Assembly: GCA_030753015.1 (NCBI GenBank)
Contig: JASMDC010000022.1
Coordinates: 1-62,794, forward strand
DNA from: Candidatus Undinarchaeales archaeon
Lineage (GTDB): Archaea > SpSt-1190 > JASMDC01
Direction: 5' to 3'
Length of the DNA: 62,794 nt
The notes under the pieces were generated by a model. It did no database searches. It was given only the letters and a program-made list of their open reading frames with translations, and was not told the DNA's origin. Position 1 is the first letter of the stretch, and the number at the start of each line of letters is the position of its first letter. Positions 10,554 through 59,632 of the stretch are shown here, piece after piece. Position numbers and translations under genes: made by a program.

Positions 10554-10554
10554 G

Positions 10555-28780: not shown

Positions 28781-28795
28781 TCTAAGTCCCCCCAC

Positions 28796-44023: not shown

Positions 44024-45670
44024 TCACGCCCCGACTACGTCCTTTCCCTCAAGGAGCCCCGCAGACAGTCGCAAGCACAATATCGCGGCGGCCATGAACG
44101 TCACGAGCGAGATCCAGAGCAGGAGCGGTATGTCGTCGATGAACAGTCCTGCCACACGTGAGAATGCCAGGAGGGTGATAAGGTACTGGGCGATATACAG
44201 CACGGTCGCCAGGGGATTGGCAAGGAACCGTGAGACATAGGCGGGGGATATCAGGTTCACCAGGATGGCCATCGCTGCTGAGTAGGCGATGTTTGCTACT
44301 CCTACGGCCAGCGCCAGCAGGACATATGCTGGATTGACCGTCCCCAGCACGGTGAGCACTGTGGCCAATGACAGGAGGAAGGCTAGCGAGCCATTGTATG
44401 CAAGGAGCGCCAGGAAACGAGCGTGGACCACGTCGGAGCGACGTATGGGGAGCATGCGTATCAGCCATTCCTGGCGCGCCTCCACGGCGAAGCAGAACTC
44501 GGCGGCCGGCACGAAGATGAACCAGATCGCCAGGAACTGGATGTAGGTCGCGATGAAGAGCGTCACCTCTGGCTCAGAGAACCGGGCGAATAGATGCAAG
44601 TAGAGGGTGTTTACAGCCATGATGCCAGTGAACACCACGAATGGGACGACCAACTGTAGCTGGTACGCATGTGTGCGGGAGAGCACAAGGAGGTCCTTGT
44701 GCACGAGCTCGGCGAAGGGAGTAGTGCGCCAGCTGCGGGGGAGGGCGAGTTCGCCCCACCGGGACGACCTGAGCGCCCTGATCATGTACTGGGTGCGGAG
44801 GTGTACGAACTCGTAGTCGAACATCTTACCTGATAGGACCGCGGCGGCCACAAGGAAGAGCGTGCCCTCCACGACCAAGAGCGCGAAGTAGGAAGTGAAT
44901 CCCATCCACTGTCCTGCGAACAATGCGAGCGTGGCCTCGGCAGCGGCCGTGGACGGCAGGAGCCACACGTCGTTGAGAAGACCCACCAAGTACCCCACTG
45001 CAGGGACCACCAGCATACCCCGGGCCCTGAGTACCACCGGGAGGAAGAGGGATACTACCGCCAGGACGAGGACCAAGCGGCGGATCCCCGTCAAGTGCCG
45101 TCGCCGGGAGGTAAGCAGGCGGTCCATGAGGAGGTCAACGAGGTATCGTACTGCCTCCGCGGTGAAGTAGAACGCCCAGAAGAGGAGCAGGAACGGTAGC
45201 GCGATGTCCAGCCTTCCCGGTGCTGCTGCAAGGGCGAATACAAGCGCGACCGGTGCGAACGTCACCGCTTCCACTCCTACTTCAACCGCGAACCGTGAGA
45301 GGAACCTGTCGCGGTTCGTCAGGGGAAGAGCGTGGAGGATGTCCATATCGGAGCGTACGAAGAGCCGCATACTACCCAGCAATCCCTCCAGCACGCTCAT
45401 GGCCAGTACGAGGTGATAGACTATCCCGGCGACCGTTAACGGGGCCACGCGTCCGGCGAGGCCCTCGGCCAAGTGCTCGAAGGTACCCCGTACCATCCCG
45501 TAGAACATGAGAAGAAACACCATGTACGGGATGATTAGCATCGAACGCCTGCGGGCCTGGTGGGCCAAGTTCCGAAGGTCGGTGACTGTCAGGAGGGTCA
45601 CCGCGTCCCAACCCGGCGACACCCGCTTCGGATCGCCGTCCCGGTCCCCGGTGGAGCGGGAGTCGTTCAT
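44024..45670 (-). CDS. ABC-2-type exporter permease
   Basis: Many TMs with twofold internal pattern (D.L..LP / E...W.IR.LP); ATGA overlap with the ATPase gene. Confidence 0.8.
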   Translation of the reverse strand: MNDSRSTGDRDGDPKRVSPGWDAVTLLTVTDLRNLAHQARRRSMLIIPYMVFLLMFYGMVRGTFEHLAEGLAGRVAPLTVAGIVYHLVLAMSVLEGLLGSMRLFVRSDMDILHALPLTNRDRFLSRFAVEVGVEAVTFAPVALVFALAAAPGRLDIALPFLLLFWAFYFTAEAVRYLVDLLMDRLLTSRRRHLTGIRRLVLVLAVVSLFLPVVLRARGMLVVPAVGYLVGLLNDVWLLPSTAAAEATLALFAGQWMGFTSYFALLVVEGTLFLVAAAVLSGKMFDYEFVHLRTQYMIRALRSSRWGELALPRSWRTTPFAELVHKDLLVLSRTHAYQLQLVVPFVVFTGIMAVNTLYLHLFARFSEPEVTLFIATYIQFLAIWFIFVPAAEFCFAVEARQEWLIRMLPIRRSDVVHARFLALLAYNGSLAFLLSLATVLTVLGTVNPAYVLLALAVGVANIAYSAAMAILVNLISPAYVSRFLANPLATVLYIAQYLITLLAFSRVAGLFIDDIPLLLWISLVTFMAAAILCLRLSAGLLEGKDVVGA

Positions 45671-46416
45671 GCAGGCGTCTCCTCCTTCACGAGCTCTACG
45701 AACGCTCGTTCCAGATCGCCTCCGAAGCGCTTGGCTAGGGGGGCGGGCTGGTCCCGGGCTATCACTTTTCCCTTATTGAGCACGATCACATGATCGCACA
45801 CCTCCTCGGCCACGGAGGCGAGGTGAGTGGCGAGAAGCACGGCACGCTCATCGCGGCCGTCCATCAGCAGGTCCTTGACCATACGGGAAGTGGCCGGATC
45901 TAGGTTGATGAATGGCTCGTCCAGGATGAGCACCTCGGGATCGTGGATGAACACCGAGGCCAGGGCGACCCGCTGGCGGAACCCTTTGGACTGGTCGCCG
46001 ATGAGCTCGTCGGCCAGGTCCTCCAGTCCGAAGATCGCCATCCATCGCTCAAGGGCTTCATCGGTGATCCCGTCGTCCATACCGTACGCCCGACAGATGA
46101 AGCGAAGGAACTCCTCGGTGGTGAGGTTGTCGTAGAGGTCGAGCGACTCAGGAAGATAGCCGAGGGCGGCCTTGGCCTTGAGCGGTTCGCGCCATATGTC
46201 ATAGCTGATGATGAGCGTCTCTCCACGTGTGGGGCGCAGGATACCGGCCATCATTCGCATGGCAGTCGTCTTCCCCGCACCATTGGGACCGAGCAGGCCT
46301 GTTACAGAGCCGCGGGGGACTACGATAGCAATTTCGTCCACAACGGTCTTGTCTCCGAACCTCCGGGTGAGGCCTTGTGCATACAAAGAGGGATCGGAGT
46401 CGGCATCCTCGGCCAT
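45667..46416 (-). CDS. ABC transporter ATP-binding protein
   Basis: GPNGAGKTT, SKGFRQR signature, LDEPF and H-loop. Confidence 0.95.
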   Translation of the reverse strand: MAEDADSDPSLYAQGLTRRFGDKTVVDEIAIVVPRGSVTGLLGPNGAGKTTAMRMMAGILRPTRGETLIISYDIWREPLKAKAALGYLPESLDLYDNLTTEEFLRFICRAYGMDDGITDEALERWMAIFGLEDLADELIGDQSKGFRQRVALASVFIHDPEVLILDEPFINLDPATSRMVKDLLMDGRDERAVLLATHLASVAEEVCDHVIVLNKGKVIARDQPAPLAKRFGGDLERAFVELVKEETPA

Positions 46417-46514
46417 GGGCCCGGGTAGACACGCTTGCTTTAAGAAAGAGGCGGGTCTTGTCGGCCGCCCGGGGGGTTAGGGTAAAAAAGATTGCCCCAC
46501 TCACATCCCATCCC

Positions 46515-47720
46515 ATGCTCCACACCATGCCCGGAGCCGAGGCTGCGGCTGTCCTTTTCGCCTGGGCCTTGGCCATGGTGCTGGCCGTGGGAGGCAGGCA
46601 TGCGTTCTACCGGGCCCTTCGGGAGGTCCCACGATCCACTTGGACGGTACTTGCGTTCCTCACGGCCCTGGCGCTCGTAGTGAGGCTCGGGGCTCCTGAT
46701 GTCTATTCGCTCATGGAGCGGGACCACCTCGGGATGCTCCAGGGACGGACCGTCCTCCTCCGCCACACGAACGCGTACTGCGACTACGACAAGAGCGGTC
46801 AGGAGATCTTCGCCCAATTCCTTCCTTCCTCCAGTGTCGATTGTCCGACCCTACGCACGGACGGGAGAACTGCCGGGTACCCGAGCACCCTGGCCCTGGT
46901 GTTCGCCCTGACAGGCACTTCAGTCACCACGGCACGCGCCGTATCCCTTATTGCGTCATTGCTGACGGTCCCCGGAGCGTTCGTGCTAACTTTCCTGATA
47001 CTCGGTAACCAAGGTGCGGCATTGCTCGCAAGCGCATCCCTGGTCCTTATGCCCCTCCATGTTGCTGTTGCCACGGCCGCAGCCGACCCCTCGCTCTCCC
47101 TGTTCCTCCAGGTCCTCACGCTCGTCTCTCTATCGGCATCGCTGCGCACGTCCTCGCGTATGCTGGCGGGCCTGTCCGTGGCGTCCCTGGCGCTTGCGGC
47201 CAATCTTACAAGTGAGAACCTCCTCCTCATCGTCCCTGTAATCGCCCTGATCGCTAGCAAAGAAGAGAAGAGCAGATCAATCACACCAATATCGCTCGCC
47301 GCATTCCTCCTCGCCCTCACGCTCCCATTGCTAGTCCATATCGCCATCGACAGTACGCGGGAAGGCCCACAATCGTCCGGCGACCTTCAGATGCGGACCG
47401 ACGAGCTGGCGCGACTGATGGGCTCATCAGAGGACAGGTGGGCGTCGGAGGACCGCTACCTCCTCCGCAACATCCATGCCCCGATGACCGCAGTGACCGC
47501 GCTCGTGGGGCTTGCGGTGATTGGTTGGCATGCCTTGGCCCCGGTCCTCCTCTGGTGGGCGCCCTTGGCCGCATATTCGGTGTATTCACTGTATAGTCCT
47601 GAGACGTTCCTCGGTATGTACGCGCCCTTGGTACCCGTATCGGGAGTAGGGCTCGCCTCGATATGCTCGATGCTGTTCCCTGAGTACTTCGGGAGCGAGG
47701 GAGGCGGTGATGGGCTATGA
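46515..47720 (+). CDS. GT-C fold membrane glycosyltransferase-like protein (ArnT/PMT-like)
   Basis: Polytopic; GYP, AR.VS and A..L...PL.V patterns; coupled to the radical SAM gene. Confidence 0.65.
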   Translation: MLHTMPGAEAAAVLFAWALAMVLAVGGRHAFYRALREVPRSTWTVLAFLTALALVVRLGAPDVYSLMERDHLGMLQGRTVLLRHTNAYCDYDKSGQEIFAQFLPSSSVDCPTLRTDGRTAGYPSTLALVFALTGTSVTTARAVSLIASLLTVPGAFVLTFLILGNQGAALLASASLVLMPLHVAVATAAADPSLSLFLQVLTLVSLSASLRTSSRMLAGLSVASLALAANLTSENLLLIVPVIALIASKEEKSRSITPISLAAFLLALTLPLLVHIAIDSTREGPQSSGDLQMRTDELARLMGSSEDRWASEDRYLLRNIHAPMTAVTALVGLAVIGWHALAPVLLWWAPLAAYSVYSLYSPETFLGMYAPLVPVSGVGLASICSMLFPEYFGSEGGGDGL

Positions 47721-49111
47721 GCGCGCGTCGCGCACTCCTCATAAACCCTCCCGTTCCTTCCCGCAGATTTGCAGGTAGGGAGGGACGTTGTACCGGGGAA
47801 GGGCAGGTGGAGCTGCTGACCTTGGTCCCCCTGAGCCTTATCTATCCTGCGGCCGTGCTCGAACGACGAGGTTGGATTGCGGAGGTGCGTGACGGTGTCG
47901 CCAACCCGCTCGGTGAGCTGAACGCAGCTGACCTCGTGCTCATCAACGTATCCCCGACCACCTATGAGGACGACATGGCGCTGGTCAGGAGCATGAAGGA
48001 CGAAGCCCCGGACGCCCATGTAACAGTGACGGGCACACTACCGACAGCGCACCCTGCACGGCTCCTGGCGGACGGTGCCGACTCTGTCCTCCTTGGTGAG
48101 ATCGAGGGCACTGTGGACGAGCTGGCCGCTCGATTGGAGGGCGGGCGTTCCCCCGCTGGCATCCCCGGACTCGTGGTGGGAGGGTCCGATGGGAAGATCA
48201 TTAACGGCCCCAGGCGGTCTTTCCTTGAGCTGGATGCTCTCCCATATCCCGCGCGTCACCTCATCGACCTCGATAAATACCGGTTCGTGTTCACCGGTGA
48301 ACGTTACACCACGGTTCTGGCCGGGCGGGGATGCCCCCACCAGTGCTCGTTCTGCACAGCGCCCCTGCTCTACGGGAGACGCGCCCGGTACCGCGATCCG
48401 GCAGCGATCGTCGAGGAGGTGGCCCACGTTGTCCGCGAGCTGGACATCCCCACCGTTGCATTCTACGCCGACACCTTCACCCAGGACCGGCGGTTCGTGC
48501 TCGACCTGTGCCAACGCCTTGTGGCCGAGGACCTCGACGTCGGCTGGACCTGCAACGCACGGGTCGACACCGTGGACGCCGAGATGCTTACGGCCATGAA
48601 ACGGGCCGGGTGCAGATACATCTTCTACGGTCTGGAGTCAGGCTCACCCGAGGTGCTCAGTGCCTGCAGCAAGGGCATCACACCCGACCAGGTCCGAGAG
48701 GCGGCCAAGCTCACCCGTGAGGCGGGGCTGGAGGTCGTGTTCTCGGCCATGGTGGGGCTGCCTGGGGAGACCCGGGAGACGGTACGCCAGACCCTGGACC
48801 TCATCATCGAGGTGGACGCGGACTACTGCTCCTTCTTCGTTGCCTCACCCTATGAGGGCACCACCTTTCACGAGGACGTGACGCAGAGCGGTAATCTGGC
48901 AGGCGATACCATGGACGAACGCCATGCTGCAGTGCGCACAGATGCCCTCACGCCCGAGGATATCGAGGAACTGGCGGACGAGGCGTTCCGCACGTTCATC
49001 CTCAGACCCAGGGTGTTCGCCCGAGAAGCCATGAAGGTAGTGCGAGAGCGCCGCTTGGACGAGGTCCGTGTGGGACTGGGGATGCTCCGGGATATGGTCC
49101 TGGGACGGTAG
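47717..49111 (+). CDS. Cobalamin-binding radical SAM protein (class B methyltransferase-like)
   Basis: N-terminal B12 domain (PL.L.Y.AA, G..PT, GE.E), RGCPHQCSFC, GLESGS and G.PGET motifs. Confidence 0.92.
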   Translation: MSARRALLINPPVPSRRFAGREGRCTGEGQVELLTLVPLSLIYPAAVLERRGWIAEVRDGVANPLGELNAADLVLINVSPTTYEDDMALVRSMKDEAPDAHVTVTGTLPTAHPARLLADGADSVLLGEIEGTVDELAARLEGGRSPAGIPGLVVGGSDGKIINGPRRSFLELDALPYPARHLIDLDKYRFVFTGERYTTVLAGRGCPHQCSFCTAPLLYGRRARYRDPAAIVEEVAHVVRELDIPTVAFYADTFTQDRRFVLDLCQRLVAEDLDVGWTCNARVDTVDAEMLTAMKRAGCRYIFYGLESGSPEVLSACSKGITPDQVREAAKLTREAGLEVVFSAMVGLPGETRETVRQTLDLIIEVDADYCSFFVASPYEGTTFHEDVTQSGNLAGDTMDERHAAVRTDALTPEDIEELADEAFRTFILRPRVFAREAMKVVRERRLDEVRVGLGMLRDMVLGR

Positions 49112-49114
49112 GGA

Positions 49115-50113
49115 TCAGGCGGTCGTCTCGTTATTCTCCACACCAAGTGCCATGAGCGTTTCCCCTTCATCGATCTCATGGTCCCATGGAGGATTGGCAT
49201 TGATGGCGTCCTTGGCCTTGATCCCGACGATGATTATATTGCGCTCCTTCTTCAGTTCGGTCAGGAGCTCGCCGAATGTACCCGCATGGGGCGACGGGAA
49301 CTCGAACACGTCGTTACCGAAGGAAGAGGTGGACAGCTCCTCGAAGAGCCGGGTCACACCGTCCTCGAACACGAAGCTCGCCAGGAGGCGGCCGCCGAAG
49401 GATGAGGAATTGACGACCAGGGCTCCGGCCTGCTTCATGAGCTCGCCGTTACCCTCGTCAAGTGCCTCGGCAACTATCTGGATATCCTTGTTGATGCGGC
49501 GCAATAGAAGGATGGTAATGATGGTCCGTGAGTCGTCACCGGTGGACACGAGCCCGAAGTCGGCTTTGGCGCCAGCGGCCTTGCGTAGCACGTTCTCCTT
49601 CCAGTAATCACCCTTGACGTGTAGCACCTCGTCGGAAGTGTCCTCAACTGAACCGGGATCGACGATCACAACCGGCCGCGGATCGTTGGCCCGCAACTCC
49701 CTGAGGGTTGACTTGGCTGTCTCGTTCCATCCACAGATGACTATATGGTTCTCCCAGTCGCATCGCTCCATTCCTAAAAGCCTCCTTACGTTACGTGTGA
49801 CAATGAACTCGAACAGGGCGCTCGCGGCCACTGCAAAGGCCGATATACCAAGGATGGCGAATACCACCGTGATCATACGCCCCTCGGATGTCACGGGGTA
49901 GATGTCGCCGTACCCGATTGTCGACATGGTGATGACCCCCCAGTAAAGGGCGTCCTCCCGGCTCTTGATCATGTCGTTTTCCCCATGCTCGAAGTAGTAG
50001 ATGCCCACCACACCTAACATGTAGATGAGGACCACTGCGAGCACGAGCCATATGGCGCGGTTGCCACCCTCGAGAAGGCTCTTGTACAAGTGCCTGAACA
50101 TCCTCACGAGCAT
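49115..50113 (-). CDS. Two-TM potassium channel with RCK domain (MthK-like)
   Basis: TIGYGD selectivity filter, HIVICGW RCK domain and TrkA-C tail. Confidence 0.93.
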   Translation of the reverse strand: MLVRMFRHLYKSLLEGGNRAIWLVLAVVLIYMLGVVGIYYFEHGENDMIKSREDALYWGVITMSTIGYGDIYPVTSEGRMITVVFAILGISAFAVAASALFEFIVTRNVRRLLGMERCDWENHIVICGWNETAKSTLRELRANDPRPVVIVDPGSVEDTSDEVLHVKGDYWKENVLRKAAGAKADFGLVSTGDDSRTIITILLLRRINKDIQIVAEALDEGNGELMKQAGALVVNSSSFGGRLLASFVFEDGVTRLFEELSTSSFGNDVFEFPSPHAGTFGELLTELKKERNIIIVGIKAKDAINANPPWDHEIDEGETLMALGVENNETTA

Positions 50114-50216
50114 GCTGCCTCCCCTTCCAGGGGAACGCACTTAAAGATTCCTTCGCGGCCTGGGCGCGGGCGCCATCCGTAGCCAATATAAAGATGGTGC
50201 GCTCCCAAGAAAGAAG

Positions 50217-52025
50217 ATGGCCGGAAGGGGAGAGCTCCGTGGTCCATGGGACACTGCTCCCGTCCTGCTCTTCATCCTTATCCTGCTCCTCCACGGCCTC
50301 CTGGTAAATCCGAGCCTCTCGCTCAGGTTCTCCAATGAGGATGTTAACTGGCTGCTGGCCATTACCGGTCTGGCACGGGAATCCGTCATCGACGATGCGC
50401 AGGGTGTGTGCACTACCATACCCTTCCCGACCATGCCTGATGCCACACCCACGTCCATGGAGCGGGTGGGGGTTCCGGCGATGGCGGCGCCGCTGTTACT
50501 GTTCTTCGGCACCTTTGGCCTGCGTCTGGTCCACGGTCTCGGTGTGGCGACGGCCGCCCTGCTCACGTACGTCCTCGCGCTGCGGGTGGGCCGCAGCCGC
50601 AGTATTGCCCTCGTGTGCATGGCCTTGGTCGCCCTCCACCCTACCATCCTGTTCTGGGAGCACCTCGGTGATCCCTCAACGACTGCGGTAGTGCCCCGAC
50701 CTTTCCATTCCAATCGCCCCGTTCTCCTCCTGGTCACGTCCCTCCTCGCTACGCTGGTGCTCCGGGAAAGGCCCTCGGTGCGTACAGCGCTGGCAATGGG
50801 GATTGTGTATGGTGCCGCGTGCGGGGTGTTGCACATCCTCATGGTGCTCGCAGTTCCCATCCTGTGGTGGCTCGCGCACGCATCACGAAGGGAGCACGCA
50901 CTTCTGGCGTTCGCGTTGGGCACGGTCATTACCGTCATCCCTTGGATGTTGTGGTACCAGTCCATGTGCGGGAGCGTGTTCGTCCATCCTACCCAGGGAT
51001 GCATCCTCTTCTGTGATCCCACATACTACCGCGATGAGGTATTGTGTGACCGTTCACGTATGACATCCGCTGATGGCGAGGAACAGGTGCACCCCCAGCG
51101 GATCGGGAGCACGACATTCCCTTTCCATGGGAGATTGAACTTTCAGAGCGGCATCATCAGGACACCGGGTTACCCCTACCCGGCGTTCGTGCTCGCGTTC
51201 CTGCGCATCCTGGCATGGCTCGGGGTGCCTCTGACCGCGATGGCCCTGACCGGGATCGGTGATAAGGAGCGGCGATGGATGCTCATGGCCGCTTTGTTGT
51301 GGTTCGCGACCTACTTCATCGTTCTCGCGCCCCAGGAGAGCTGGGACTGGGACAAGGAGCGCCTCTTCCTTCCCTTCATCCCACCCGTGGTCGTGTTCCT
51401 CACCATAGGGACCTCACGCGTTCTGCATGAACCACACCGACTGTGGCACGTTATAGGGGTCGCCATCGCCCTGGTCGCAGTACTGACCCTCCTCGCCGGA
51501 GTCGAGGTGGCTCCCGATCCCACGTGGCAGCTCCTCTTCCCCCGTGAGCACCATGCTCCCGTCCTGTACGCTCGCGAGCGGCGTATCGCCGAAGTGCGGG
51601 CAGAGGTCACGACCCCACGGATCCTGCCCGTCGTCGCGCGTACGTCCACGTTCGGTCTCAATGGTCCCGCTCGCCACGAGCTCACACCACTCGCTGCGTT
51701 CGAGGATCCGGCTCTCCGCCCCGGTATCGACAGCATCTCACAGCTTCCAGAGGGAGCGGTCGCCCTTATCCAAGGGGACGTGGACCTGGTCCAGGCCGCG
51801 ACACAACGGTGCGCCATCCCTCTTGCGGCGTCGGTCTCGCCAGCATCACCCCGGTTCGTGCTGGACGTCGGACACGTCCGCGACACACTTTGCACCATGC
51901 AGAAGGTCTACCTCTTCACATCGGAGCCCGTAGGCGACCTCGATGAGTCCGTAATCCTTGGTGAAGAGGTAAATGGCGGACATCTCCTGACGCTCACGCC
52001 AGATGCCCGGGAGCGCTACTGCTGA
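50217..52025 (+). CDS. Polytopic membrane protein, GT-C-like
   Basis: 10+ TMs, A...ALHP, RLFLP and extracellular loops with Cys pairs. Confidence 0.55.
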   Translation: MAGRGELRGPWDTAPVLLFILILLLHGLLVNPSLSLRFSNEDVNWLLAITGLARESVIDDAQGVCTTIPFPTMPDATPTSMERVGVPAMAAPLLLFFGTFGLRLVHGLGVATAALLTYVLALRVGRSRSIALVCMALVALHPTILFWEHLGDPSTTAVVPRPFHSNRPVLLLVTSLLATLVLRERPSVRTALAMGIVYGAACGVLHILMVLAVPILWWLAHASRREHALLAFALGTVITVIPWMLWYQSMCGSVFVHPTQGCILFCDPTYYRDEVLCDRSRMTSADGEEQVHPQRIGSTTFPFHGRLNFQSGIIRTPGYPYPAFVLAFLRILAWLGVPLTAMALTGIGDKERRWMLMAALLWFATYFIVLAPQESWDWDKERLFLPFIPPVVVFLTIGTSRVLHEPHRLWHVIGVAIALVAVLTLLAGVEVAPDPTWQLLFPREHHAPVLYARERRIAEVRAEVTTPRILPVVARTSTFGLNGPARHELTPLAAFEDPALRPGIDSISQLPEGAVALIQGDVDLVQAATQRCAIPLAASVSPASPRFVLDVGHVRDTLCTMQKVYLFTSEPVGDLDESVILGEEVNGGHLLTLTPDARERYC

Positions 52026-53185
52026 TCTCGATCATCCGGTGACGGGGGGGACACGAGTCCCGCTATGAGCCCCATCAACAAGGGTGTACCGAAGATCACG
52101 TGGCGGTAACCGATGTAATGGCCCGCGAGCGGCATGTACAGGACCACGGCCGCAAGTTGGAACGCGAGAAGTGCCAAGGGCCCTGTGAGGAATGCCTGTC
52201 GCAGGCCCTGTCTGACAACTATGATGGCAAGAACGAGCAGGGCTGGGAGGCCGGTGATGTACATCGTCTGAGCTACGGTGGCCGGGAGGAACTGCTCGAC
52301 AGCGCTTGAAGCACCGACCTCGGCCAGGCCCCGGTGGAAATGGCGGGCGAAGCAGGGAAGGTATCCCTCACAACCGCGGTACATGAGGTCGAGGGATTTG
52401 GCATGCTCGATGTTCGTGGTCACTGCAGGGAGCACGGGGAGGAGCACCAGTATCGGCCACAGCAATCGGACGTCGAAGGGACGTGACCGCAGTGTACGGA
52501 ACAAGAAAAGTGACAGGTAGAGGATGACGTTGGTAGGCCGGCCCAGGAGGAAGAGGCTCGCAGCCACGATCAATCCTTGTCGGTGACGTGCACCCTCGGC
52601 CTCGTAAGCGATGAAGCGGTCCAGCACAAGGAAATAGAAGAAGAGGTTGACCGACTCGGACATGAGCGTGAATCCCCGGAGGGGGAGTGGCGAGAGCACC
52701 ATCCATCCCAGCACCGCTGTCCGCGCGGGGCGACCAAGGCCCAACCGACCCAGGATCCGCCATACAAGGAAGAAAGTCCCCGCCATGAGGGCGAGATTGA
52801 TGGCGACCATGGCGTTAAGCGATCGCGTCGGACAGTAGAGCGGCGCTACTGTCAGCGGGAAGAGGATGAATGGGACGCGGTAGTGATGCCAGTCAAACCG
52901 ACCACTGCACACCATCTCGGTGGCCTCCAGGTACGACACGGTATCGGGTGTGTAGACGTACCAGGACCTGATGATCAGATAAATGCGAGTGCTCGGATAT
53001 CGGCGCATGGGCGACTCGATTAAGATCGTACCGTTCTCCCACCGGGGCGGAGCGGACATGAGATCCTCGTCCGCTGGTGTGAGCTCCAGGGCGTTGGCCC
53101 GGAGGTCGGTCAGCGTACCGGCGTGATAGGGGATGGCGAGCAGCACCACTAGAAGGGCCGCTGCGAGGTCACGTCGGACGGCCAC
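52016..53185 (-). CDS. Polytopic membrane protein, GT-C-like
   Basis: PDTVSY acidic first loop, FP, MSES, RP and YRH patterns. Confidence 0.6.
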   Translation of the reverse strand: MAVRRDLAAALLVVLLAIPYHAGTLTDLRANALELTPADEDLMSAPPRWENGTILIESPMRRYPSTRIYLIIRSWYVYTPDTVSYLEATEMVCSGRFDWHHYRVPFILFPLTVAPLYCPTRSLNAMVAINLALMAGTFFLVWRILGRLGLGRPARTAVLGWMVLSPLPLRGFTLMSESVNLFFYFLVLDRFIAYEAEGARHRQGLIVAASLFLLGRPTNVILYLSLFLFRTLRSRPFDVRLLWPILVLLPVLPAVTTNIEHAKSLDLMYRGCEGYLPCFARHFHRGLAEVGASSAVEQFLPATVAQTMYITGLPALLVLAIIVVRQGLRQAFLTGPLALLAFQLAAVVLYMPLAGHYIGYRHVIFGTPLLMGLIAGLVSPPSPDDRDQQ

Positions 53186-53194
53186 ATCCCCCGC

Positions 53195-54007
53195 CTATCC
53201 GCCAGGTACCTCGGGCTCAAATACCAGGCGGTCGATACCCATGGCCTCCAACTCCGTCTCCGAGGGGACGTCCTTGTTGTAGTAGAACTGGGTGTTGCCC
53301 TTGAGCCTTAGCTCCACAGGAACGGTCGGATGTGTGAGCCGGAACGTGTAGGTCTCGCACTCGCGTCCGCAAGGGAATATGCCCACGCGGTCCACCTTCT
53401 CCGGCTGATCACAGGCGTTCGTAAGACAAAGGCGCGTGGTCGTGACATAGACCCATGGCTCGTACAGGGTCCCGCTCAGTTTGACATCGGGGAAATCCAG
53501 ATTTACATCGAGCCCCTGGAGCGGCCAGTCGAGCTCGATGCGTCCGATGCGTCTTTCGCTCAGGAACCGGCGAACAATAGGCACAGTAATCCCCAGGCGC
53601 CGGAAGTGGTCCACCATGGCATCGGGCACTTTGCCCTTGAGAAGGGAGAGCCGGGGGCCACGCTTCTGGCGCGTTATGAGCCGACCGAAAACCGGTACGA
53701 GAGCGTCGAACCGGTCGTTGATCATCCGAAGTGTACCCCAATCGTTGATGACCACCTCGCTCCCAGGTCGACGCGCGACCATGAGGGCGAACAGTGGCTC
53801 CAGCATGTCGAGCCCCGCGTCAGTGACATATGGGGTGAGGAGAGTTAGGTCCAACTTTCGTTCCTCGCAAAGGTCGAGCACGCTCCCAAGCTCCTTTGCA
53901 GTGGGAATGAGGTTCTGGCAGAACTCGGCACCGAAGTACACCCGTGTGTACTTGTCCTCCAGGTCGTTTGTATGGTCGGTCCGTGAGAGATAGAGCGCGT
54001 GTTCCAT
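53195..54007 (-). CDS. U32-related partner protein (UbiV-like)
   Basis: VYFGAEFC, EVVINDWG and TRLC...C...PCGREC Cys motif; follows the U32 gene by 5 nt. Confidence 0.65.
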   Translation of the reverse strand: MEHALYLSRTDHTNDLEDKYTRVYFGAEFCQNLIPTAKELGSVLDLCEERKLDLTLLTPYVTDAGLDMLEPLFALMVARRPGSEVVINDWGTLRMINDRFDALVPVFGRLITRQKRGPRLSLLKGKVPDAMVDHFRRLGITVPIVRRFLSERRIGRIELDWPLQGLDVNLDFPDVKLSGTLYEPWVYVTTTRLCLTNACDQPEKVDRVGIFPCGRECETYTFRLTHPTVPVELRLKGNTQFYYNKDVPSETELEAMGIDRLVFEPEVPGG

Positions 54008-54012
54008 GTCAG

Positions 54013-54987
54013 TTACACCGCCGTCGGGTAGTAGCAGCGCCGTCCGCAGGGGAAGCCATACACCTCTGCATATCGCGCCATCACCCGTTCGATATAGTCA
54101 TTCTTGGTAAGTCCCTCTGACAGCAGGTCACGGGCCCACGCGATAAGGGATAGGTCGCGCAGCTTCCGCTCCGTGTCGTGGATGCGCCCGATGATCTTGA
54201 CACTGTCCATACCGATACGGTCCAGTTCCCAGATCGCGCATGCACCGCAGTAGTGGCATGTGCCCTCTGTGAGCAGTGACTTCCAGCCCTGATAGTGCTT
54301 TCTTGCGGTCTCAGCCCCAGGTCCATGCGCTTTCACCTCATAGGTGAGGCGGCATGCGTGGCATCCATCGGCGCCAAGATAGAGATCGGGATAGCCTTCC
54401 ACGTTCAATGCGTGCTGGAACGTGCAGAGTCCGTCGATGAAACTGCACAGGGCGTTGATGATGAACATCTCAAGCTCCAAAGAGGTGGACGCGCGCAGGC
54501 GTTCCAGCTCCGAGAGGGTGAAGTGGCGAGGGAGGACCAGACGCGCGGCACCGAGCTCCTCGTACAAGCGTGCAGTTCGCGAGTTGAAGGTGGTCCCCAC
54601 GGTGCTCACGTGCAACCGGGCGGGGATCCCCTGCTCGCGCAGGGTGAGCATAAGCCCAATGTCCCCAACGATGAGCGCGTCGATCCCCTGATCCAAGGCC
54701 CGCTCCAGCTCATTGAGCACCACTGGATACTGCTCTTGTGTGTAGTACTGGGCGTTCATTGTGAGGTTCACGGGTGCGCCACGCTCGTGTGCCCGCTCGA
54801 TGGCCTTGCCCAGTTCCTCGGCAGTGGCGAAGTTGGACTGCGGCCATTCCCGGCGGTTGATGGGAGAGCAGTGGGAGAACCGCTCCTTCCATGCGGCCGG
54901 AAGGAGCCCCGCATAGAACTCGTTGGCCCCGGCATCGACGAGAGCGTCCACCTCAGAGGCCGTATTGAGGGGCGAGACGATGCGCAT
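54013..54987 (-). CDS. Peptidase U32 family Fe-S protein (UbiU/RlhA/TrhP-like)
   Basis: GANEFYAG, DALIVGD, H.ST, R.VLPR, ELEMF, Cx6C and S.KI.GR motifs. Confidence 0.9.
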   Translation of the reverse strand: MRIVSPLNTASEVDALVDAGANEFYAGLLPAAWKERFSHCSPINRREWPQSNFATAEELGKAIERAHERGAPVNLTMNAQYYTQEQYPVVLNELERALDQGIDALIVGDIGLMLTLREQGIPARLHVSTVGTTFNSRTARLYEELGAARLVLPRHFTLSELERLRASTSLELEMFIINALCSFIDGLCTFQHALNVEGYPDLYLGADGCHACRLTYEVKAHGPGAETARKHYQGWKSLLTEGTCHYCGACAIWELDRIGMDSVKIIGRIHDTERKLRDLSLIAWARDLLSEGLTKNDYIERVMARYAEVYGFPCGRRCYYPTAV

Positions 54988-55026
54988 ACTACCTGCTCCC
55001 TAAGAATGGTCCTTTAAAAAAGGTTC

Positions 55027-56385
55027 TTATTGGACGTCCCCGGCGCCCGTGATCGCGTCACGTTCGCGCTGGAGGTTGTCGTCGGCGGTGGTCGCGATGC
55101 CAGTGAGGGAGACGTTACCACCCTGGCAGAATCCGGTATTGGCCAGGTCATAGGTGAGCATGTCGCATGGGCTCCCGAACCCGACTACTAGCACACCTCC
55201 GCTCCCACCGGACACGGCCACGGTACCGCCGGTGACCAGGGAGAGGAGCTGGCGCCACAGCAGTCGCACGGCCCGTAACCCGCCACGAGTGAGAAACGCC
55301 CGACCGAGAGCGGCCAATAGAAATGGAGTGGCGAACCAGGAGCCACCAACCACACGTTCACGGTAGGTGTCCAAGGACGGTTCGAGGGCAGCGAGGTCCA
55401 CGAGGTGGGGCAAGGGAATGAAACCACGCCCGGGCTCCCGCACCAGGATGATGTGGTGGTTGTAGAAGCAGTTGAGCCGTCCCAGCACATGGTAGAGTGC
55501 GAAGAACAGCCGCTGGAACCGGTAGAGATCGCGAAGAGTGAACTGCCCGTCCGTTTGTTCTTCGAGTAGCAGCGCGAGTTCATCGTTCGTAAGGGCTATC
55601 TCGTTCTCCCGACGGGCCCGGCCGAGACGTGTGAGCGAACGGAATCCCACAGCGCGAATGAAAGGACGGTCCACGGCATACCGGAGTATATCCCCCAGCT
55701 CACCTTCGTTGATCCCGCGCGCTACGGCCACCTCGAGCACGGTAGGGACCTTACGCGCCTCAATTGCGGAGAGCACTTCTTCGTGGAGGGCGGCCAGCCT
55801 TTCTCCACGCAGGCGTTCCAGCGACGCGTCGTCGAACGAATCGAACTGGAGGCGTACCTCAGATAGGCCCGCCACCAGAAGGTCGTCGAGATAGCCAGGT
55901 TCAATGAGCCGCTTCCCGTTTGTAAAGAGCACGGGGAGGTTCCCTGACTTCCGCACACGGCGAACGATATCCACAAGATCATCCCGAAGCGTGGGCTCAC
56001 CACCGAACAGATTGATTTGGACACCCCGAACCTTGGACAGAAAGTCGTCCACATCCTTCCCGGTCATCTCGCTACCTTCATCCCCTCCATTTACCGAACA
56101 GATAGGACAGCGCATGTTGCATCGCATGGTGAGGAAGAGGTTGTACACCGGAAAATCATAGTCGTCCGTTACGGGTGCCTCACCGTTCAGGGTAAAGAAG
56201 TCACGGGACAGTCCTTCCTGGTACCATGGCTCCACTCCGACCTGAGCCCGGATCGTCCCATGATCAGGGCACTCCCGGACCAGCCAGACCCGACCGTCGT
56301 CCTCGCGGACCTCGGCCTCGAGCTCTCGCAGACAGGTGGGACATACGCTCCTTGTCGTGCGGAAGACCTTACCCAAAGAACTCAC
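55027..56385 (-). CDS. Radical SAM protein, MJ0619/Tes-like architecture
   Basis: N-terminal TRSVCPTC...CPDHG metal site, CNMRCPIC, GGEPT, TNG and LQFD motifs. Start is GTG 56385 or TTG 56376. Confidence 0.85.
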   Translation of the reverse strand: MSSLGKVFRTTRSVCPTCLRELEAEVREDDGRVWLVRECPDHGTIRAQVGVEPWYQEGLSRDFFTLNGEAPVTDDYDFPVYNLFLTMRCNMRCPICSVNGGDEGSEMTGKDVDDFLSKVRGVQINLFGGEPTLRDDLVDIVRRVRKSGNLPVLFTNGKRLIEPGYLDDLLVAGLSEVRLQFDSFDDASLERLRGERLAALHEEVLSAIEARKVPTVLEVAVARGINEGELGDILRYAVDRPFIRAVGFRSLTRLGRARRENEIALTNDELALLLEEQTDGQFTLRDLYRFQRLFFALYHVLGRLNCFYNHHIILVREPGRGFIPLPHLVDLAALEPSLDTYRERVVGGSWFATPFLLAALGRAFLTRGGLRAVRLLWRQLLSLVTGGTVAVSGGSGGVLVVGFGSPCDMLTYDLANTGFCQGGNVSLTGIATTADDNLQRERDAITGAGDVQ

Positions 56386-56480
56386 CGTGCCGACGCGGGC
56401 TCGGGCAAAACATAAAAACACGATGGGAGCCGGGCCAAGGCGCTGGCTGGGATGGCGGAACGATGCCTGACCTAGATGGT

Positions 56481-56996
56481 CTAGTAAGCCTGACAGCTGC
56501 CCTCGAGTCGAGTTATATAGGAGTTGATCTCCTCGATCTGGAAGCAATTGTCGTGCTGTCGAAGGGCAGTACCACAATCAGTGCACACGAAATCGTTCTC
56601 GAAAGCGTTCTCGAAGGTTGTTTTGGTACAGCCGCTCTCACATCGGAAAAAGTGGTTGCCGCGCTCGTAGTCGAGCCGACGCCGGAGTAGATCAAGGGTC
56701 ATGTTCCGCCTCGTCTCCACCAGCTGATGCAGCCGGTCCTGTTGCAGGGTCCAATGGTATACGTACCAGCCATTGGCCTCTCGCTCTTTGCGGAAGCTTA
56801 CGACCTTCTGATTGTATAGACGATAGAGGATGCCTCGGATGACTGACTCCGGAATGCCTACCGCCGCAGCAAGGTCAACCTCGGACATCTCGTCCGCGGT
56901 TAGAAGCTTTCTTACCACCTCGATGGCCCGGATTCCACCATATCCCGCAATGGTGTCCACCAGAATTGGTTCTCGCAACATGTCCACATCTCTCAC
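56481..56996 (-). CDS. tfe: Transcription factor E alpha
   Basis: wHTH with R.ILY.L and GW..Y.W; Zn ribbon F.C...C...FE.A....F.C..CG. Confidence 0.93.
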   Translation of the reverse strand: MRDVDMLREPILVDTIAGYGGIRAIEVVRKLLTADEMSEVDLAAAVGIPESVIRGILYRLYNQKVVSFRKEREANGWYVYHWTLQQDRLHQLVETRRNMTLDLLRRRLDYERGNHFFRCESGCTKTTFENAFENDFVCTDCGTALRQHDNCFQIEEINSYITRLEGSCQAY

Positions 56997-57154
56997 CTGG
57001 ACAGACCTTAGAGGAACTCGTTGGTTATATAGTTTTTGGAAAGAATGGGCTTATTAACCTTTAATAAGCCGTGAAACGGACGATTTGGCCGTTTTTCTCG
57101 ATTTACAGCACGCTATGGAAATATTTTTAATGACGTAGGTTATCGACAGGTTAA

Positions 57155-59632
57155 ATGCTTCTCCACGTGGAGCGTCTTCGCGGAAGGAACCTACGGGCCT
57201 GGTATCTTGACGGTGAGGTCACACCTACCATCATCGAGGACTTCTTTCCGTACTTCAAGGCACGGCTCACCGAAACGTCAGCATTGGACGCCATCAAGAC
57301 GCTGGAGGGCGTGCGTGCGGTGGAGCCTTTCCTAAAAGATGAGGGGATCTGGCGGGTCGTAGTGGAGGAGCCGTCCAACACGCCAAAAGTATCTCGTGCG
57401 GCCAAGGACATCTCCGGTGTCGAAGAGGTGTACGAGAACGACATCGTGTTCCTCCAGCGCTTCTGCTATGATCGCGTGGACGACCTCTTCGCAGGGAACG
57501 CTTTCGAGGATCTGTGTGTCCTTGCTTTTGACATCGAGACACAGTTCGAACACAACCGCATTCCCGAGGCCACCCACCATGCCGTGACCCATATAGCGCT
57601 ACGCTGGTCCAATCGGGAGGGAAAGGTGGACTCGGTCCTGCTCCATGGTGAGGAGCGTGAGATGCTCGCGCGCTTCTGTGCCACCATACGCAAGGTCGAT
57701 CCGGACATCATCGTCACCTACAACGGCGATCAGTTCGATATGCCGTTCCTCATGGAGCGGTGCGAGCGGTTGGATGTGTCCTTCGACATCGCCCGGGCAG
57801 GTCTGAAGAGCCGCATCGCTCGAGGAAGGATGTGCGGACGACTGCGCGAGGCCCGGAACCTCGTGGTCGTCCCCGGACGTATCCATGTGGACCTGTATGT
57901 TCTGGTCAAGCGCAATCCCCGGCTGGCCCTGCTGCTCGAGAACTTCTCCCTGGACGAGGTCGCACGTGTGCTCAACATCCGAAAGGTTCACTCCGCGTCT
58001 GTTTGGGACGAAGAGGACCTTGATCCGACGGTCGTTGGTGAGAAGTGCATCGAGGACACCGACGTGACGCTCCAGTTGGCCGATCGCCTCGTGCCTCAGG
58101 AGGTGGAGCTGGCCAAGGTCGTCAACCTGCCCCTGGACATCACTTATCGTTCTGGTAACTCCCATCTCATCGAGGGTCTGATGATCCGTGAGTACACTGC
58201 CGAGCACGTGGTACCGAACCGTCGCGGAAAGGTGGGAGTGCTAGAGCTGGCCGACGACCGGGGAAGGGACCGGTTCCTGGTCAACCGGAACCTCAAGAAC
58301 GTCAGTACCGTCCCCATCGACCTTGAGGGATACACTACCGATGTGGATGTACTCTCCAAGCTCCCGAGCGATGTCCTGAAAGACCTTCTGGAAGAGGTGG
58401 AGCCCGTGCTGCGAGAGTTCGCCGAGGTCACGATCATTGACCGCTACAAGGCCAACAAGAGCAAAGGCTGGCTCAAGGGTCGCCGATACGCTCTTGTACT
58501 CTCCTACGAGCAGCTCCCCTTCGACGAGCTGGAGCAGCTGCATCTCATCAACTGGGGACGTCCGGCCAAGTTCGCGGGCGGTTTCGTGGACATCCCCGCT
58601 CCGGGGCTCCATTCCACAGTGGCGAAGTTCGATGTCCAGTCCATGTACCCCTTCATCATGCTCGTGTTCGGGATCCGACCTCGTTCCGATACCCTGGACG
58701 CGTACCTTCCCCTCTTGGAACGCCTCACTCGATGGCGACTTGAGATCAAGGAGGATATGAAGGCCGAGCAGGCCGACCGGGCCGCGCTCGATGCCCGGCA
58801 GATGGCCCTCAAGGGTCTCATCAACAGCTTCTACGGCTACATGGCGTTCGCTTTCTCCCGGTGGCGCGACTATACCAAGGCCGCGGTCATCACCGCCAAG
58901 GGCCGGGAGATCATCCAGGATGCAATGGCCTACCTCGAGGAACGGGAGTGCACGGTCATCGAGGTGGATACGGACGGCATCTATTTCTCCGGAAGGGAGA
59001 CGAGGGAGGAGTACGAGGAGCTCTTGAAAGGTCTGAACACGCGCATGCCCGGAGAGAATGACGTGGCCATCACGCTAGAACTGGAGCAGATCATCCAGCG
59101 CGGGATCTTCTACAAGACAAAGAACTACGCCCTTCTCGTGGACGGTACCCTTGTGATGAAGGGGAGCTCTTTCAAGAGCAAGAAGCTGCCCCCCATCATC
59201 CGAAGCAGCATCGAGGCATACACACTGGCCCTCCTCAGGACCGGTGACCGCGACACTGCTCGCGAGACCGTGGCCGAGGTCAAAGAACGGCTCGCTGCCG
59301 GCAGGGTGGAACCACCGGAGGTCGCCATTAAAGAACGCCTGCTCAAACCACCGGGATCATACCCACCAGGCCAGTACCCCCACGCCGAGGCGGCCAAGCT
59401 CCTGGAGCAGGAGTTCGGGCAGTCAACAGGCCCGGGATTCCACGTACGGTACTTCGTGGCTAAGGGTATAGAGAAAGCTGTTGCGCCCCGTGCTCGCCCC
59501 CTGGAGCTTTTCGATCCCATGCAAGTGGACGCAGGGTACTACCTGGAGAAGCTCAACGACCGCCTCGGGCTCATCGAGGAGATGGCGTTCCCACGCCCCA
59601 AGCAGGTCCAATCGACGCTGTTCGGTTATTAA
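57155..59632 (+). CDS. Family B DNA polymerase with 3'-5' exonuclease, internal insert and PIP box
   Basis: FDIET, YNGDQFD, DVQSMYP, KGLINSFYG, DTDG and KNY motifs; C-terminal QSTLFGY. Confidence 0.93.
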   Translation: MLLHVERLRGRNLRAWYLDGEVTPTIIEDFFPYFKARLTETSALDAIKTLEGVRAVEPFLKDEGIWRVVVEEPSNTPKVSRAAKDISGVEEVYENDIVFLQRFCYDRVDDLFAGNAFEDLCVLAFDIETQFEHNRIPEATHHAVTHIALRWSNREGKVDSVLLHGEEREMLARFCATIRKVDPDIIVTYNGDQFDMPFLMERCERLDVSFDIARAGLKSRIARGRMCGRLREARNLVVVPGRIHVDLYVLVKRNPRLALLLENFSLDEVARVLNIRKVHSASVWDEEDLDPTVVGEKCIEDTDVTLQLADRLVPQEVELAKVVNLPLDITYRSGNSHLIEGLMIREYTAEHVVPNRRGKVGVLELADDRGRDRFLVNRNLKNVSTVPIDLEGYTTDVDVLSKLPSDVLKDLLEEVEPVLREFAEVTIIDRYKANKSKGWLKGRRYALVLSYEQLPFDELEQLHLINWGRPAKFAGGFVDIPAPGLHSTVAKFDVQSMYPFIMLVFGIRPRSDTLDAYLPLLERLTRWRLEIKEDMKAEQADRAALDARQMALKGLINSFYGYMAFAFSRWRDYTKAAVITAKGREIIQDAMAYLEERECTVIEVDTDGIYFSGRETREEYEELLKGLNTRMPGENDVAITLELEQIIQRGIFYKTKNYALLVDGTLVMKGSSFKSKKLPPIIRSSIEAYTLALLRTGDRDTARETVAEVKERLAAGRVEPPEVAIKERLLKPPGSYPPGQYPHAEAAKLLEQEFGQSTGPGFHVRYFVAKGIEKAVAPRARPLELFDPMQVDAGYYLEKLNDRLGLIEEMAFPRPKQVQSTLFGY

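Follow-up and report, generated by a model that had tools for sequence, protein, structure and literature searches.

What would bring together, within about 12 kb of one archaeal genome, a Tes-like radical SAM enzyme, two U32-type proteins, a B12-binding radical SAM enzyme, three membrane proteins resembling glycosyltransferases of the C type (GT-C) and an ATP-binding cassette (ABC) pair? These genes lie at 44024-56577 of the window that we analysed, a stretch of 62,794 nucleotides (contig JASMDC010000022.1) from a Candidatus Undinarchaeales archaeon (GCA_030753015.1). An earlier note, made from the sequence alone, had read them as one anaerobic tailoring system that matches no characterised pathway. 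We find that the core of the locus, comprising the Tes-like radical SAM enzyme (TesL) and a probable UbiU/UbiV-like heterodimer of a U32 protein and an unannotated partner (U32p), often with B12 radical SAM enzymes, is a real conserved module, and we did not find it described in print. Full-text literature searches, covering few subscription journals, returned no paper with both U32 and a tetraether term among the matches listed, and a search of the same coverage on the U32 family returned only work on ubiquinone and RNA hydroxylation and a review. In this archaeon the module is joined in an operon with a GT-C-like protein and stands amid lineage-specific GT-C, B12 radical SAM and ABC genes. 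As to its role, we tentatively favor the anaerobic tailoring of a membrane-anchored glycoconjugate of the cell envelope.

The Tes-Like Gene and the U32 Pair Are Recurrently Linked

The genes of TesL, U32, U32p and the membrane protein mem389, described as a co-oriented run in the earlier note, lie on the minus strand with intergenic gaps of 39, 5 and 9 nt. The note had proposed the neighborhoods of U32p homologues as the place to look for linkage, and these were counted in the 80 loci kept. Of these, 53 have a co-oriented U32 gene within 500 bp of U32p, and seven have a Tes-like gene directly upstream of U32. These seven are the congener and six bacterial loci (four labelled Omnitrophota, two only "bacterium"). 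When metagenome contigs were scanned from the other side, starting from an alignment of Tes-like proteins, 12 loci had U32 directly downstream, and there U32p follows wherever the contig continues. B12 radical SAM genes are found downstream in many of the TesL-U32-U32p loci. The linkage of the Tes-like gene with the U32 pair is real and recurrent, and the homologues are not scattered without conserved neighbors.

The bacterial module has a typical gene order. Upstream are a FAD amine-oxidase-like protein, sometimes IorA and IorB, a DegT sugar aminotransferase and a roughly 340-aa radical SAM protein; TesL, U32, U32p and one to five B12 radical SAM genes follow; and then come a PEMT/ICMT-like membrane methyltransferase, a GNAT protein and a GT2 glycosyltransferase, with PMT_2 or Wzy_C in some loci. 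Beside U32-U32p in a number of loci (L011, L017, L023, L024, L032, L040, L044 and others, from Dehalococcoidia, Chloroflexota and archaea), genes for FAD_binding_4 proteins recur (16 of the 80 loci), as do those for a CCG/Fer4 protein and electron transfer flavoprotein (12 loci each), and these neighbors could serve as the electron acceptor chain of the hydroxylase.

U32 and U32p Resemble the UbiU/UbiV Pair

U32p has no Pfam or NCBIfam match, and PF01136, the model that recognizes U32, does not recognize it. The family is nevertheless large, with 280 homologues at E<=0.001, and in a pattern search of species-representative genomes 551 of the 596 matches encode a relative. None of the 120 homologues listed carries a Pfam domain, and those that are named are called hypothetical. 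Their hosts include Thermodesulfobacteriota, Dehalococcoidia/Chloroflexota, Omnitrophota, Planctomycetota, Bathyarchaeia, Hadarchaeota, Helarchaeota and others. A subgroup of U32p loci without a U32 gene within up to 9 kb (e.g., L025, L035, L037, L052, L059, L074 and L087) comes mostly from Thermodesulfobacteriota/"delta proteobacteria", and loci without U32 are often near Ham1, DAHP (3-deoxy-D-arabino-heptulosonate 7-phosphate) synthase and lipoate ligase genes.

UbiU and UbiV form a heterodimer with described cysteine motifs (PMC6747719), and our motif comparisons with them, as with GDGT-MAS below, rest on the main text of the respective papers. In U32p the cysteines C30, C194, C213 and C217 are invariant among 22 sequences, one cysteine far upstream and the others forming C...CX3C; the four follow the CXnCX12CX3C layout of UbiV with other spacings. 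In the U32 protein C181, C188, C212, C247, C250, C314 and C318 are invariant among 19 sequences, and its CX6CX23CX34C is similar to the CX6CX16CX38C of UbiU, again with differing spacings. The U32 protein reaches neither orthology cut-off in NCBIfam, scoring 84.6 bits with UbiU (cut-off 440) and 69.1 with TrhP (cut-off 534).

For U32p, the Atlas model (pTM, the predicted template modeling score, 0.90) resembles a cluster named Peptidase U32 with a TM-score of 0.85. Sequence comparisons did not reach as far: the U32p profile retrieved only chance-level rows and no relative among PDB sequences, and an hhalign alignment of U32p with U32 had a probability of 15%, too weak to show homology by sequence. 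In complex predictions, the U32-U32p pair scored 0.93 in each of three runs, compared with 0.00 for the best of three controls, with contact agreement of at least 88% and a partner pLDDT (predicted local distance difference test) of at least 89. Among 157 solved complexes 116 attain this mark, and among 215 mismatched pairs 2 do, counts that hold only roughly here because our own alignments were used in the prediction.

U32 and U32p are therefore likely a UbiU/UbiV-like heterodimer, as far as the models indicate, in a subfamily outside every curated model. The two systems share adjacent genes, one product with a clear U32 domain and CX6C...C...C and the other shorter, and a heterodimer, which is here a predicted one. 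Twelve U32 subfamilies are recognized, most of them uncharacterised, the few characterised oxidases that are named being UbiU/UbiV, RlhA and TrhP, and U32 enzymes have been proposed to take oxygen from prephenate and release phenylpyruvate (PMC10990095); the shikimate and arylpyruvate genes near some U32p loci would fit prephenate as the oxygen donor here too. The oxidase chemistry of U32 enzymes is described as still unproven in vitro (PMC10990095, PMC11574389). Unlike UbiU/UbiV, the module is tied to a Tes-like radical SAM enzyme and not to ubi genes, there is no SCP2/UbiT-like gene among the Pfam matches of the region, and the hosts include archaea, Omnitrophota, Dehalococcoidia and Thermodesulfobacteriota.

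TesL Is Related to Tes but Distinct From It

The open frame of TesL (55027-56577) matches the Pfam families Zn_ribbon_HMPTM (E 3.8e-17) and Radical_SAM (E 3.8e-15). Its NCBIfam scores are below the cut-offs of both TrsS (164 bits, cut-off 490) and Tes (139.1 bits, cut-off 450). TesL keeps the rubredoxin-type ribbon CX2CX20CX2H (C15, C18, C39, H42), the radical SAM motif CX3CX2C (C89, C93, C96) and three conserved C-terminal cysteines (C306, C407, C420), and shares the ribbon, the radical SAM core and conserved C-terminal cysteines with Tes/GDGT-MAS, where GDGT stands for glycerol dialkyl glycerol tetraether. GDGT-MAS holds an N-terminal auxiliary [Fe4S4] cluster by C73, C77, C80 and a histidine (PMC9433317), whereas TesL lacks those cysteines; all seven aligned sequences are free of cysteine from the end of the ribbon up to the radical SAM motif. 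TesL also differs in forming part of a separate clade and in adjoining U32 and glycan genes rather than lipid genes. Its sequence thus identifies TesL as a relative of Tes and not a Tes.

The clades were drawn from a FastTree phylogeny of 85 Tes-like proteins. A ranking of Tes-like proteins by a profile was set aside for placing the TesL of the window, as the profile included the window's own sequence and the ranking was circular. A bacterial TesL clade of 23 rows has support 100, and U32 is adjacent in 18 of them; three of the other five have too little downstream DNA to judge. By comparison, U32 is adjacent in none of the 50 rows outside both this clade and its sister clade, the one that contains the window's TesL, and the window's TesL is the only U32-adjacent row outside the bacterial clade. 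One sister-clade member, L116, lies among PMT_2, two GT2, an SGNH/AlgX-like protein and several radical SAM genes, with a U32 gene 5 kb off on the opposite strand.

The earlier note had brought in archaeal tetraether lipids, and a lipid reading is easily set out: TesL would couple or activate isoprenoid tails, the B12 radical SAM enzyme would methylate or rearrange them, the U32 pair would hydroxylate them and the GT-C proteins would add head-group sugars, the product being a modified diether or membrane-spanning lipid. TesL matches GDGT-MAS (PDB 7tol) with E 8.6e-35 over the ribbon and radical SAM core, with the same rubredoxin motif, although the C-terminal third is unaligned; UbiU/UbiV act on a polyprenylated lipid (PMC10990095, PMC6747719); the genome encodes a geranylgeranylglyceryl phosphate synthase (PcrB, 222 bits); the B12 radical SAM enzyme matches a "lipid biosynthesis B12-binding/radical SAM" model with 105 bits; and the bacterial modules include PEMT/ICMT-like methyltransferases and a FAD oxidoreductase that is weakly CrtI/HpnE-like. 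However, the best Tes score in a scan of the genome was 123.5 bits, below the cut-off of 450, TesL is without the auxiliary-cluster cysteines, and the neighboring genes are of glycan type: sugar aminotransferases, sugar acetyltransferases, GT2, Wzy_C, SGNH proteins and carbamoyltransferases. The published route to hydroxylated GDGT that we found is described as using a Ted desaturase and an AttH hydratase, not a U32 enzyme (10.1101/2025.10.20.683597). We considered that GDGT may be made via one of the seven Tes-like paralogues of the genome. Altogether we regard a lipid pathway at this locus as quite unlikely, and the tetraether side of the note's interpretation is not favored.

The B12 Radical SAM Enzyme and the ABC Pair

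The B12 radical SAM enzyme matches Radical_SAM (PF04055) over residues 203-363 (E 1.8e-30) and B12-binding (PF02310) over residues 39-136 (E 6.4e-10). Its best NCBIfam models are HpnJ (208 bits, cut-off 577.6) and AprD4 (171 bits, cut-off 500), which act on amino sugars, according to the functions that NCBIfam names. The closest relative is a paralogue in the same genome (45% identity), and identity to the B12 radical SAM enzymes encoded after U32p in bacteria is 28-31%. The architecture is that of HpnJ and AprD4, which are also the top models for those bacterial enzymes, but scores are far below the cut-offs and no hopanoid or aminoglycoside genes are present.

The hopanoid side-chain pathway (HpnH, HpnG, HpnI, HpnJ, HpnK, HpnO) can be used as a working analogy only. 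It builds a sugar-derived polar group on an isoprenoid lipid, and its enzyme classes (a radical SAM enzyme forming a C-C bond, a radical SAM enzyme with a B12 domain, GT2, an aminotransferase and a FAD oxidoreductase) resemble those of the bacterial modules. It differs in that all matches to Hpn models are below threshold (HpnH 59.9, HpnE 44.9 and HpnJ about 200 bits), and it is not known to include a U32 enzyme.

The earlier note had also listed an ABC exporter. The ATPase is confirmed by Pfam, and its TIGR01188 score (197.5 bits) is below the cut-off of 312 for the DrrA subfamily; the protein of 44024-45670, presumed to be its permease, has many hydrophobic segments and neither a Pfam or NCBIfam family nor a paralogue in the genome. 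An exporter beside radical SAM enzymes, together with sub-threshold matches of the B12 and small radical SAM proteins to the maturase models ApyD, rSAM_ocin_1 and WgkB, might suggest that radical SAM enzymes and a hydroxylase modify a ribosomally synthesized peptide that the ABC pair exports. All these model scores are far below the cut-offs, such a pathway would give no account of the glycosyltransferases and sugar enzymes, and we noticed no gene for a precursor peptide, leader peptidase or peptide recognition element in the Pfam scans, no dedicated search for small open reading frames (ORFs) having been made. We consider such peptide maturation very improbable.

The Membrane Proteins Are Probably GT-C-Like

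The protein of 46377-47720 matches two PMT_2-positive paralogues in BLASTP (E 2e-11 and 8e-10). The other two, mem602 and mem389, have no Pfam or NCBIfam match; mem389 has about seven hydrophobic segments in a crude scan. Foldseek searches with their AlphaFold2 models, where fold matches had TM-scores of 0.27-0.45, retrieved GT-C enzymes. For mem389 the best match was ALG12 (E 7.3e-3, TM-score 0.45) and the first 30 rows listed were all of GT-C type; its Atlas model (pTM 0.75) resembled GT39/ArnT clusters, 92-98% of whose members carry PMT_2, with TM-scores of 0.63-0.70. For mem602 there were 10 matches at E<=0.001, all ArnT or oligosaccharyltransferases, and the first 36 rows listed were of GT-C type (ArnT, STT3, AglB, PglB, ALG9, ALG12, ALG3, Emb, Aft, PimE, PIG-U). 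Since both AlphaFold2 models are of low confidence, we use these matches only as consistent leads. An aspartate of a "PD" motif aligns in six of seven sequences, an alignment too shallow to establish a catalytic residue.

With moderate confidence, and as judged from modeled folds or a weak profile match, all three membrane proteins appear GT-C-like: like ArnT, PMT and the oligosaccharyltransferases they are polytopic, with best fold matches to ArnT, STT3/AglB, ALG9/ALG12, Emb and Aft. Unlike those enzymes, two of the three have no sequence family and no relatives outside the genus. The three GT-C proteins of the earlier note can be accepted with reservations: mem389 and mem602 are of this type by fold matches, whose top rows are all GT-C enzymes, and the third by a sub-threshold PMT_2 match and its PMT_2-positive paralogues. 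Both unassigned proteins are rare: mem389 has five matches at E<=0.001 among 1.84 billion representatives, one of them at E<=1e-10, and occurs in 2 of the 17 genomes of the phylum set; mem602 has four homologues elsewhere, all 83-89% identical, while its own genome encodes eight paralogues, of which some lie in frames that match PMT_2 weakly.

Which Genes Belong to the System?

The membrane proteins, ABC pair and channel gene occur together with the core in 1 of the 80 loci, the same-genus L009. The outer genes (the GT-C/B12 radical SAM pair, the third GT-C gene and the ABC pair) are not a conserved part of the module. The note's single system of about 12 kb is thus not supported; the linkage holds for the TesL-U32-U32p core. 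Proximity by itself means little in this genome, which holds 42 PMT_2 matches (32 over the cut-off) and 29 B12 radical SAM loci; sequence no more than 5 kb from a PMT_2 match makes up 8.3% of it. Within this distance are three of the seven U32p genes (binomial P 0.015), five of the 29 B12 radical SAM loci (P 0.087) and two of the seven Tes-like loci, which belong to a single locus. Divergent GT-C proteins like mem389 and mem602 escape such counting, and loci of the same genome are not independent of each other.

One could accordingly argue that only TesL, U32 and U32p form a unit, acting on a substrate unrelated to the envelope (a cofactor, an aromatic metabolite or RNA), and that the GT-C, B12 radical SAM and ABC genes are bystanders in a crowded genome of 3.85 Mb. 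Besides the counts above and the single syntenic locus, the channel gene interrupts the region, the known U32 substrates are aromatic rings and RNA bases (PMC10990095, PMC11574389), MJ0619 was formerly assigned to pterin methylation (PMC9433317), and a chemistry of aryl acids is suggested by the Ior and PaaX genes of the bacterial modules. Against bystanders speaks the position of mem389, which starts 9 nt after U32p on the same strand; GT-C genes also lie directly beside U32 pairs on contigs C37 and C29 of this genome and in the bacterial loci L045, L066 and L116, and glycan genes recur in independent lineages. We judge a trio acting alone on such a substrate unlikely, if a contender worth keeping in mind.

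Glycan and Prephenate Genes Around the Other Copies

The genome has seven U32p genes, seven Tes-like genes and 15 PF01136 matches in about 12 genes. Of two U32 pairs on contig C37, the first is in a co-oriented series of radical SAM, PMT_2, PMT_2, a 187-aa ORF, U32p and U32, and in the second U32 and U32p adjoin a 720-aa paralogue of mem602. Contig C29 has U32, U32p and PMT_2, and C62 has DegT, U32, U32p, a NeuD/PglB-type acetyltransferase and a B12 radical SAM gene. On C42, U32p and U32 are followed by a flavodoxin-like reductase, chorismate synthase and GT2, and on C26, two B12 radical SAM genes, GT2 and a GFO/IDH/MocA oxidoreductase precede U32p and U32 by about 3 kb, past PLD and two unassigned ORFs. 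The Tes-like paralogues have similar company: PMT_2, a methyltransferase, a GDSL protein, PMT_2 and a B12 radical SAM gene with two Tes-like genes on C84, carbamoyltransferases on C57 and C29, and adjacent small radical SAM genes on C55 and C28. Judged by family assignments, the gene content around the U32p and Tes-like copies is typical of surface-glycan loci and not of core-lipid loci.

Some neighbors concern the presumed oxygen donor. Chorismate synthase is encoded two genes after U32p-U32 on C42 (L089:9960-11030), and DAHP synthase is near U32p in 5 of the 80 loci. Subunits of indolepyruvate/arylpyruvate ferredoxin oxidoreductase (Ior) or the regulator PaaX lie in or beside bacterial modules (L026:1970-4325, L111:1376-3752, L141:11299-11868 and L031:3281-4177, PaaX being in L031), and IorA, at 673.8 bits, is above its cut-off of 650.9 inside a bacterial module. 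These shikimate and arylpyruvate neighbors would fit prephenate in and phenylpyruvate out, and we take them as hints only.

A Proposed Role in the Cell Envelope and Its Weak Points

Sugar aminotransferase, acyltransferase, GT2, Wzy and carbamoyltransferase neighbors lead us to favor an envelope glycoconjugate over tetraether lipid cores as the target of this putative tailoring. The functional unit would be the four-gene minus-strand operon of TesL, U32, U32p and the GT-C protein. U32 and U32p would form a heterodimer with a [4Fe-4S] cluster in each subunit and, by analogy with characterised U32 enzymes, might hydroxylate the substrate without O2, with prephenate as the oxygen donor. TesL, which appears to keep the radical SAM cluster, a rubredoxin site and a single C-terminal cluster but not the N-terminal one, may act on the same substrate, a membrane-bound molecule, by radical C-H activation or C-C coupling. 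The most likely substrate would be a polyprenyl-phosphate-linked sugar or a glycolipid head group of the cell envelope, and the presumably co-transcribed GT-C enzyme would transfer the product at the outer face of the membrane. The GT-C/B12 radical SAM pair, the third GT-C protein and the ABC pair would belong to the same greatly expanded envelope-glycan toolkit of the lineage.

Several observations weigh against this role. The window's own cluster has no sugar-activating or sugar-modifying gene among its Pfam matches, and the U32 hydroxylases characterised so far are described as modifying carbons of aromatic or heteroaromatic rings, in quinone precursors or in RNA, rather than sugars (PMC10990095, PMC11574389). 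The AlphaFold2 models of mem389 and mem602 have pLDDT values of only 54.8 and 61.5, these proteins lack relatives in other genera by which a conserved linkage might be seen, and the PMT_2 enrichment near U32p is modest, suggestive but not strong. The lipid-type genes of the bacterial modules also count here. No U32 gene is in view in 26 of the 80 U32p loci, about two thirds of which have several kb of flank on both sides; in these the U32 partner may be encoded elsewhere, or U32p may work alone. Finally, the window's TesL does not group with the bacterial TesL clade. It falls in the sister clade, together with six paralogues from its own genome, none of which has a U32 gene beside it, and two metagenome proteins; a quick IQ-TREE tree gave the same placement (support 98), and an approximately unbiased test argued against joining it to the bacterial clade (p 0.023). 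The placement is not secure, given the long branches and unusual composition involved.

A broader version of the envelope role is possible but, taken as a whole, we hold it to be rather unlikely. In it TesL, U32 and U32p, usually with HpnJ-like B12 radical SAM enzymes, would constitute an undescribed O2-independent pathway across anaerobic bacteria and some archaea, where radical C-H activation or C-C coupling of the Tes type and hydroxylation driven by prephenate would together modify an envelope molecule anchored by an isoprenoid, either a head group derived from sugar or a glycan unit linked to lipid. The phenylpyruvate by-product would be removed in some bacteria by an arylpyruvate oxidoreductase. 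No earlier U32 hydroxylase system would then lie outside the chemistry of quinones and RNA.

The Host Genome

The window is one contig (C32) of a 3.85-Mb assembly of 117 contigs, 98.9% complete with 5% contamination. The nearest public relative, labelled "Candidatus Undinarchaeota archaeon", is fully syntenic over the region and 93% identical in U32p. Of the 17 genomes in the phylum reference set, 15 have only 0.6-1.2 Mb; that of the window and that of its congener (3.6 Mb) exceed them three- to sixfold in size. The U32p family occurs in just these two of the 17 (seven copies in each), and its nearest relatives outside the genus are mostly bacterial, with 43-55% identity, which suggests, on the sequence record, that the family was acquired and then expanded in this lineage.

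Near-identical DNA was found in marine and seawater metagenome runs (20 rows from 12 studies, eight of which rows may be the source of the assembly). The metagenome contig L112 encodes a Tes-like protein identical to the genome paralogue L002 (C28), and so the same or a very close organism was present there. In one metatranscriptome library, six short contigs map to the region, five of them exactly and one with a 3-nt deletion, covering the ATPase gene (two), the B12 radical SAM, U32 and TesL genes and the neighboring gene for transcription factor E (TFE). Another RNA run, X24, had one partly fitting contig on the region. The data of all four runs used are assembled contigs, which carry no information on transcripts, strand or level, and with DNA carry-over possible the metatranscriptome contigs are a weak hint of expression.

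Layout of the Region

Ten long open frames occupy 44024-56577 (Table 1), and the genes that the earlier note had listed are all present at or near the positions it gave. No protein of the region reaches an NCBIfam equivalog cut-off.

Table 1. Open frames of the region, listed from TesL toward the ABC pair
Product	Position	Strand	Length	Remarks
Tes/GDGT-MAS-like radical SAM enzyme, TesL	55027..56385	-	452 aa	from GTG at 56385; longest ORF to 56577
U32 protein, UbiU-like	54013..54987	-	324 aa	PF01136 E 1.4e-34
U32 partner, U32p, UbiV-like, unannotated	53195..54007	-	270 aa	no family model
GT-C-like membrane protein, mem389 (predicted fold)	52016..53185	-	389 aa	last operon gene
GT-C-like membrane protein, mem602 (predicted fold)	50217..52025	+	602 aa	convergent with mem389, 10-nt overlap
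Potassium channel	49115..50140	-		Pfam TrkA_N and Ion_trans_2
B12-binding radical SAM enzyme	47717..49111	+	464 aa	Pfam Radical_SAM and B12-binding
PMT_2-like GT-C membrane protein	46377..47720	+	447 aa	PMT_2 22.5 bits, cut-off 26.1
ABC transporter ATPase, DrrA/NodI/GldA-like	45667..46416	-		PF00005 E 2.3e-24
Polytopic membrane protein, presumed ABC permease	44024..45670	-	548 aa	no family

The coupling of a GT-C gene to the B12 radical SAM gene that the note had reported can be read directly: the two genes overlap by ATGA at 47717-47720, and GGAGG stands 13 nt upstream of the B12 radical SAM start. The likely start of the GT-C gene itself, judged from translation and sequence, is the ATG at 46515 or 46527. 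The ABC ATPase and the 548-aa membrane gene overlap by 4 nt and are divergent from this pair. The GTG start of TesL matches the N-termini of the six bacterial relatives aligned with it, and is supported by the TFE gene, which overlaps the 5' extension of the longest Tes-like ORF.

The gene list of the note had omitted the potassium channel and the TFE gene (TFIIE_alpha). The channel gene, although inside the region, is probably not part of the system. The TFE gene (171 aa, 56481-56996, minus strand) lies 95 nt upstream of TesL on the same strand; its protein is 94.7% identical to that of the congener, and the surrounding stretch 56386-57154 is 88.6% identical in DNA. Housekeeping genes without relation to the region flank it: urocanase and a deacetylase at one end, TFE and a family B DNA polymerase (57155-59632, plus strand) at the other. 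Elsewhere in the window are an Orc1/Cdc6 gene (33246-34637, minus strand) and three very long frames (1051, 615 and >1012 aa) at 7398-12390 and 59757-62792, both on the plus strand, with no Pfam match at E<=1e-5. Rfam searches found no RNA family anywhere in the window, and a 75-nt tRNA-SeC with anticodon tca predicted by ARAGORN at 28602-28676 (minus strand) is probably false, as it lies inside a Nitroreductase frame (28238-28795).

Significance

What is new here is a large unannotated partner family, a likely new heterodimeric U32 subfamily and a recurrent genetic link to a Tes-like radical SAM enzyme. The host is itself unusual, a marine member of 3.6-3.85 Mb in a phylum whose other 15 sampled genomes are far smaller. 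The link between TesL and U32 gives a testable handle on what else anaerobes hydroxylate without oxygen, and it may show what Tes relatives do outside tetraether synthesis. Tes homologues have been used to infer the producers of tetraether lipid biomarkers, and the TesL clade therefore warns against that inference.

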